From assembly GCF_013122565.1 (NCBI RefSeq), contig NZ_CP053258.1: a stretch of 64,000 bases of DNA, one strand, 5' to 3'. Of the stretch, positions 61,848 to 61,873 are shown piece by piece. A program made the translations under genes and the position numbers. The stretch's first letter is position 1, and each line of letters opens with the position of its first letter. The notes under the pieces were generated by a model, which saw only the letters and a program-made list of their open reading frames with translations, made no database searches and had not been told where the DNA came from. This stretch comes from Escherichia coli (GTDB taxonomy: Bacteria; Pseudomonadota; Gammaproteobacteria; Enterobacterales; Enterobacteriaceae).

Positions 61848-61873
61848 AACAGGAGATGGCAACATCTCCTGTT
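61848..61873 (+). terminator. hairpin between LRR-like gene and ATP-grasp gene (possible attenuator)
   Basis: 10-bp stem aacaggagat/atctcctgtt with loop ggcaac, followed by atttat. Confidence 0.4.

Follow-up and report, generated by a model that had tools for sequence, protein, structure and literature searches.

A structurally conserved hairpin between STM4015 and the enzyme genes of an enterobacterial radical SAM/ATP-grasp operon

What does a strong hairpin do between the first gene of an operon and the enzyme genes that follow it? The question is raised by a locus close to the end of the 64,000-nucleotide stretch of Escherichia coli DNA analysed here (contig NZ_CP053258.1; hereafter the window), where a gene for an LRR-like protein precedes a set of radical SAM and ATP-grasp genes. 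An original prediction for this locus proposed that the hairpin may act as a partial terminator or processing site that uncouples the LRR-like gene from the enzyme genes. We have examined the hairpin, which we call HP1, together with its counterparts in other genomes and the genes on either side of it.

All of the genes concerned lie on the + strand. The STM4015-family gene (60990-61838) encodes a 282 aa LRR-like solenoid protein (NCBIfam NF038076, 324.7 bits against a cutoff of 275). It is followed by a RimK/LysX-like ATP-grasp gene of the STM4014 family with a GTG start (61899-62885; NCBIfam NF038074, 331 bits), by an STM4013/SEN3800-family hydrolase gene (62878-63750), which overlaps STM4014 by 8 nt, and by the 5' part of an STM4012-family radical SAM gene (63743-64000), which overlaps STM4013 by 8 nt (ATGAATAA) and continues past the window end. 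In complete genomes such as L001 the cluster extends further to an STM4011 radical SAM gene and a Cof-type HAD hydrolase gene, giving the order STM4015-STM4014-STM4013-STM4012-STM4011-Cof between the sulfoquinovose (yih)/ompL region and typA. The STM4015/STM4014 junction is the only one in the operon without gene overlap, the remaining junctions overlapping by 4-8 nt. Upstream of STM4015 a strong ompL terminator is followed by a promoter-like site, TTCACA-18-AATTAT (60860-60889, + strand), which was found by consensus scan with 9/12 matches and is a weak candidate for the STM4015-4011 promoter. The ompL terminator is a 14-bp perfect hairpin (60818-60853) with A-runs and T-runs on its flanks, directly after ompL; it looks like a bidirectional intrinsic terminator parting the yih/ompL genes from the STM4015 operon.

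The cluster has a GC content of 42-45% and is carried by 157 of 5426 complete E. coli genomes. The window holds a rare allele, with 95.6% identity to one strain and 83-86% to the rest; over 60990-64000 it is approximately 15% divergent from L002 and L003 throughout the STM4015-4011 cluster, and it occurs in one of the 5426 complete E. coli genomes. The yihQ gene of the window shows 98% identity to many E. coli genomes. We also note that the C-terminal region of the window STM4015 (SYRNKPRTYSDRVYM) is closer to that of Lachnospiraceae (SDRNKPGSYRGETYM) than to that of the common E. coli allele, a likeness that hints at old allelic lineages or separate acquisitions. Our search of the literature on STM4011-4015 returned only a positive-selection table and a sigma-54 site inside STM4013, antisense to the gene, which was located by ChIP-chip in Salmonella LT2 (TGGCATAAAACCTGAAAA; PMC3844500); it returned no term-seq, RNA-seq or other transcript data for this locus.

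RNAfold builds HP1 (61846-61875, + strand) from 13 uninterrupted perfect base pairs, 61846-61858 with 61863-61875 (AUAACAGGAGAUG/CAUCUCCUGUUAU), around a GCAA tetraloop (61859-61862). HP1 has a free energy of -20.0 kcal/mol (z-score -8.9), and 0/200 dinucleotide shuffles were as stable; in a 96-nt context HP1 still dominates the fold (z -4.5). The arms originally described, aacaggagat (61848-61857) and atctcctgtt (61864-61873), are indeed exact complements, but the helix is longer than was described. The distances quoted for that shorter stem were confirmed: it lies 10 nt after the STM4015 stop codon TAA (61836-61838) and 25 nt before the STM4014 GTG at 61899, while the full stem begins 8 nt past the TAA. 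The ribosome-binding site claimed for the ATP-grasp gene is also present, as a Shine-Dalgarno AAGGA at 61887-61891, 7 nt upstream of the GTG, and the RefSeq annotation starts STM4014 at this same codon.

Such a structure is rare in the window. When the entire 64 kb was scanned for perfect hairpins (stem of 10 bp or more, loop 3-8 nt), four were present where block shuffles predicted 0.33: HP1, the ompL terminator at 60818, a palindrome of REP-like appearance at 27149 and, at 432, an AT-rich stem of 10 bp. Only HP1 and the ompL terminator have stems of at least 13 bp. The palindrome at 27149-27173 is a perfect one of 11-12 bp (GTGTCGGATGCG-C-CGCATCCGACAC), like the REP type. HP1 has a single copy in the window even with up to three mismatches allowed, and its spacer matches just this locus, in 157 of 5426 E. 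coli genomes; we therefore rejected a REP, BIME, MITE or other genomic repeat.

Several further identities were considered and set aside. A search of Rfam gave no match overlapping 61840-61905 at E <= 10. A snoU13 hit that overlaps the hairpin on the Salmonella locus (5918-6023) scores 20.6 bits against a gathering threshold of 46, with E 0.12, and was taken as a chance match. RNase III sites need a duplex of about two turns, some 20 bp or longer; with a conserved core of 8-9 bp and a longest version of 13 bp the hairpin is too short to be an RNase III processing site. A small ORF inside the hairpin is suggested in the window by an AGGAG abutting an ATG at 61856, but this ATG is missing in the other E. 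coli alleles. Fusion of STM4015 to STM4014 by read-through or frameshift was rejected as well, since the spacer is open and a multiple of three only in the window, MS6198 and Salmonella, and not in B2-type E. coli (59 nt) or Superficieibacter (52 nt). Finally, a terminator on the minus strand was dismissed, as that strand offers no proximal U-run and carries no convergent gene.

A hairpin is found at the matching position in three E. coli alleles, in five Salmonella variants and in Superficieibacter electus, and its stem sequences differ among them. The other E. coli alleles have the stem UGGGAGAGA-GUCA-UCUCUCCCA, which differs from that of the window while its position is unchanged. In Salmonella the arms GGGGAAUG and CAUUCCCC enclose UACA, UGCG, UGCA or UGUG, and the S. 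electus hairpin is GGGGAAUG-CCUG-CAUUCCCU. The distance from the hairpin loop to the start codon is always 36-40 nt in the three genera. Comparison across the genera delimits a conserved core of 8-9 pairs, which in the window comprises 61850-61858 with 61863-61871 (+ strand).

In a gapless alignment of 11 distinct sequences from Escherichia, Salmonella and Superficieibacter, which span only about 3-4 independent lineages, the inner eight pairs of HP1 are intact in all 11 and five of the eight have changed on both sides. Overall, 84.6% of the cells are paired, compared with 45-56% in controls with the partner shifted by 1-3 columns, and the observed covariation score was matched by 0/500 shuffles. 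RNAalifold recovered the HP1 helix from an independent MAFFT alignment. A single G-U pair occurs, which is compatible with + strand RNA but not with its complement; like the retention of the hairpin in different genera, this pair speaks for selection acting on RNA of the + strand. Judged from these comparisons, HP1 is an RNA hairpin under structural selection, its shape having been kept while its sequence changed, although correction of palindromes at the DNA level could contribute to the covariation.

Two observations on the Salmonella loci concern annotation and gene length. The STM4014 calls in L084 (6001-7026) and L096 (3001-4026) take as their start an ATG within the hairpin's 5' arm and give 341 aa, which is probably a mis-annotation because the family model and the other genera favour a GTG 39 nt downstream (328 aa). 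In another assembly, L093, the hairpin (2984-3027) is lengthened to 13 perfect pairs (GAGUAGGGGAAUG/CAUUCCCCUACUC), and the ATP-grasp gene (3001-3849) is called at just 282 aa, which suggests an internal deletion.

Comparison with more distant loci indicates where the hairpin arose. The order STM4015 then STM4014 is kept in nearly all of the 85+ loci collected (Bacillota, a Tannerellaceae MAG and others). At the 78 loci from outside the Enterobacteriaceae, most STM4015/STM4014 junctions are either overlaps of 1 or 4 nt or gaps of 1-20 nt. The first 60 nt past the STM4015 stop show no excess structure at these 78 loci (median percentile 0.57), and the spacers of at least 24 nt, of which there are few among the 78, contain no significant hairpin. 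In three Lachnospiraceae/Lachnoclostridium loci (L039 928-998, L040 1007-1133 and L063 5918-6001) the spacer consists of tandem 18-nt units, approximately GCATTGATTACRGAGTAA, and has no hairpin. The enteric spacers measure 60 nt in the window and in MS6198, 59 nt in common B2-type E. coli, 51 and 54 nt in Salmonella and 52 nt in Superficieibacter; by the crude minimum free energy of the 60 nt past the stop, some of these junctions reach only the 10th-23rd percentile of their own locus. Additional alleles retrieved by a DNA-pattern scan of metagenomes were all E. coli-like. Since the non-enteric junctions are mostly tight and lack both a hairpin and excess structure, the spacer with its hairpin is, on this sampling of loci, an enterobacterial innovation on a cluster that was probably transferred.

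Downstream of HP1, a second and weak hairpin (HP2; 61878-61903, + strand) spans the STM4014 initiation region as AUCAC-AGAA-[AAGGAA]-UUCU-UC-GUGAU, with -4.3 kcal/mol and z -1.5. The Shine-Dalgarno AAGGAA occupies its loop and the GUG start lies in its 3' strand. This layout recurs in Salmonella and Superficieibacter, where stems of AUAAA/UUUAU enclose GGGA (-4.9 to -5.7 kcal/mol). A GGA in a hairpin loop is the classic format for CsrA binding. The Escherichia and Salmonella versions of HP2 fell into no single register in the MAFFT/RNAalifold analysis. The HP2 loop sequence GA↓AUU (61890-61894 in the window), like GG↓AUU in Salmonella and Superficieibacter, fits the RNase E motif RN↓WUU (PMC5927463), a short motif that is frequent by chance, and GA↓AUU as a candidate RNase E cut site is only a lead.

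The original suggestion of a partial terminator must be weighed separately for each genus. With 9-13 bp of perfect stem, -14.5 to -20 kcal/mol and a position 8-12 nt past the TAA, the hairpin has the stem-loop of an intrinsic terminator. In Escherichia the GC-containing 9-bp core leads directly into an invariant U-rich tail, UUAUUUAU (61872-61879, + strand), which is the same in all Escherichia alleles and contains six U in eight positions. The first 4 nt of UUAUUUAU double as the outer 3' arm of HP1, where they pair with AUAA, and terminators commonly show such pairing between an upstream segment and the beginning of the U-tract. HP1 might thus be a leaky Rho-independent terminator, or attenuator, at which a fraction of the polymerases stop past the stem, so that less enzyme mRNA than STM4015 mRNA is made. 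The d'Aubenton-Carafa scores, which are approximate only because modern energy parameters were used in the old formula, are +2.8 for the window and +2.8 to +5.9 (borderline) for the Escherichia alleles, comparable to the +1.7 of the ompL terminator but far short of rrnB T1 (+15) and the trpA terminator (+36). However, a consensus terminator scan of the window did not call the HP1 site, and the approximate scores are clearly negative in Salmonella (-35 to -52) and Superficieibacter (-22). Salmonella retains the hairpin, but the counterpart of the tail there is UACUCACC or CCCUGUUC, with no U-tract.

Given the negative scores in these two genera and the missing U-tract in Salmonella, termination cannot be the function that conserves the hairpin across genera. 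The conserved role would lie in the hairpin itself and not in canonical termination, since the U-tract is restricted to Escherichia. Leaky termination is plausible only in Escherichia, and as a complete account of HP1 we consider it unlikely. What survives of the suggested partial terminator is at best its Escherichia part. The accompanying idea, an uncoupling of the LRR-like gene from the enzymes, agrees with the comparative data: the compensatory changes, the sole non-overlapping junction of the operon and the non-enteric loci without a hairpin.

HP1 could also act on translation. HP1 might stop ribosomes that have finished STM4015 from sliding on to re-initiate and might isolate HP2, so that its folding ignores the upstream traffic and STM4014 is translated at its own low rate. 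The ancestral state is tight translational coupling, as seen in the 1- or 4-nt overlaps of many loci, and the enteric spacer replaces such an overlap; the HP1 core, 6-12 nt past the stop, would keep its fold while a ribosome terminates at that stop; HP2 is present in each of the three genera; and the 36 nt that run from the U-rich tail into the first STM4014 codons are identical between E. coli alleles that diverge by approximately 15% overall. This reading leans on HP2, however, which is weak throughout (-4 to -6 kcal/mol, z -1.5 to -3.4), and a natural C-to-A change in one E. coli strain breaks an HP2 pair while HP1 remains intact. We regard such a decoupler as rather doubtful when taken alone, although translational decoupling with HP2 is compatible with protection of a 3' end and the two are not exclusive. 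It is less probable still that the inverted repeat is a feature of the DNA without a role in RNA, either a leftover from the origin of the spacer that template-switch correction keeps perfect or the site of a dimeric DNA-binding protein. Template switching does yield arms that change together and remain perfect, as is the case here, and the 5' arm, which is rich in purines, is similar to spacers with a Shine-Dalgarno-like sequence in certain Lachnospiraceae loci such as L052 and L056, so that it could be a fossil ribosome-binding site. Yet the hairpin holds its position in three genera while the flanking spacer diverges, and the single G-U pair fits + strand RNA. Protein operators conserve sequence rather than mere complementarity, and the stem sequences here differ; moreover, the cluster contains no regulator gene, and HP1 is not a member of a repeat family.

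The interpretation that we prefer, and to which we give about an even chance, is that HP1 forms and protects a 3' end and so uncouples STM4015 from the enzyme genes, all five of which are translationally coupled, with partial termination possibly added in Escherichia. HP1 and its 51-60 nt spacer would have been acquired together in the enterobacterial version of the operon. In the + strand transcript HP1 would fold just out of range of ribosomes that terminate at the end of STM4015. Positions 6-12 nt past a stop codon lie beyond what a terminating ribosome unwinds; the HP1 core starts at this distance, and it should therefore form with or without translation of STM4015. The most likely role of HP1 would be to create and protect the 3' end of a short STM4015 message. 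Two routes to this end can be envisaged. One is leaky intrinsic termination, which is plausible in Escherichia, where UUAUUUAU comes after the stem. The other, which would be available in all three genera, is an endonuclease cut in the AU-rich initiation region downstream, with GA↓AUU in the HP2 loop as the candidate site, after which HP1 would block 3'-to-5' exonucleases. The expected outcome is more STM4015 than of the five translationally coupled enzymes, while HP2 may additionally limit or set independent initiation at the STM4014 GUG. We infer each of 3'-end formation, protection and the expression ratio.

This reading agrees with the presence of a stable structure at the 3' boundary of STM4015 that three genera retain through compensatory changes. 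Stabilization of an upstream cistron by a protective 3' structure is a common mechanism, and E. coli and Salmonella often have such structures in common (PMC5927463). Against a protective role, the Firmicutes run the STM4015/STM4014 pair with no hairpin, and the system therefore does not generally require unequal expression. The small number of lineages behind the covariation, and the ability of DNA template switching to keep palindromes without any RNA function, also count against it.

Leaky intrinsic terminators, or attenuators, follow the precursor genes of lantibiotics and other RiPPs, for example nisA. HP1 resembles them as a stem-loop between a first, non-enzymatic gene and the genes for modifying enzymes, and through its U-rich tail in Escherichia. 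It differs in that STM4015 is a folded LRR-like protein of 282 aa rather than a short precursor peptide, and in that the HP1 U-tract is weak in Escherichia and missing in Salmonella. Intercistronic hairpins of the Rhodobacter puf type delimit mRNA segments of different stability. In papBA such a hairpin protects the 5' end of the downstream message (PMC5927463). As an intercistronic hairpin that would set the ends of differently stable mRNA segments HP1 is like both, but unlike in papBA its downstream genes are expected to be the less abundant and the window has no good RNase E motif upstream of HP1. A further likeness is to the protective 3' stem-loops represented by the malE-malF REP hairpins and by the structures of Dar and Sorek (2018; PMC5927463): a stable hairpin directly past the first cistron, conservation between Escherichia and Salmonella, an AU-rich segment with an RNase E motif downstream and more upstream product expected. 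HP1 is nevertheless single and unique and not a REP repeat like those of malE-malF, and most of the Dar and Sorek structures lie inside the downstream ORF, whereas HP1 occupies a dedicated spacer. The STM4015 operon is not included in the term-seq supplements of that study.

A possible motive for an excess of STM4015 lies in the protein itself. Its homologues at 85+ loci (L001-L092) in three phyla, the WGR-fused forms included, all end in (P/A)-(M/I/F)-(L/F/Y/I/M)-T-E followed by a stop, so that a ...TE-COOH end is invariant across Bacillota, Bacteroidota and Enterobacteriaceae (61815-61838 in the window). The AlphaFold model is a confident LRR-type solenoid (pLDDT 91) in which only the last two residues are uncertain. 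The PDB homologue is 2ra8 (E 6e-71), a structural-genomics entry of 362 aa from Bacteroides fragilis. An extra N-terminal WGR domain occurs in some non-enteric homologues of 355-372 aa (L089 2913-3998, L090 2930-3997 and L092 2867-3985), which are likewise tightly joined to STM4014, and 2ra8 is probably of this longer type, as the match starts at its residue 81. STM4014 for its part is similar to the RimK family (E 9e-13) and to LysX (E 1e-8), is also CofF/MptN-like and has a weak tubulin-tyrosine-ligase-like match. Ligases of these kinds extend glutamate carboxylates: RimK acts on ribosomal protein S6, LysX on LysW and CofF/MptN on glutamyl tails.

The invariant C-terminal TE beside a RimK/LysX-like ligase suggests that STM4015 may be a substrate or carrier of STM4014, which would explain its separation from the enzymes. 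We tentatively extend this idea, with a low probability, to the whole operon. HP1 might mark the boundary between the gene for a substrate (scaffold or carrier) and the genes for tailoring enzymes: STM4014 would attach a building block to the C-terminal glutamate of STM4015, and the two radical SAM enzymes, the sulfatase-like hydrolase and the HAD phosphatase would then act, HP1 and HP2 having been inserted by enterobacteria so that the carrier is made in stoichiometric excess. The chemistry would be similar to that of LysW or the pearlins, but on a 30-kDa LRR protein, and the carrier would be in excess in the same way as RiPP operons make excess precursor. The literature search found no paper joining a RimK-like ligase, radical SAM enzymes and an LRR scaffold, and nothing on STM4015 as a substrate modified at its C-terminal glutamate.

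Taken alone, HP1 would be a routine operon-tuning element of a familiar class; it matches no Rfam family. Its interest lies in a clean natural contrast, in which translational coupling joins the two genes in gut Firmicutes but a structure-selected hairpin separates them in Enterobacteriaceae, which suggests that expression ratios were re-engineered after horizontal transfer. STM4015 is thereby singled out as the component that may be needed in a different amount, within an uncharacterized cluster that is widespread in gut bacteria and encodes two radical SAM enzymes and an ATP-grasp ligase. Together with the invariant C-terminal glutamate, HP1 offers a testable lead to the chemistry of this cluster.
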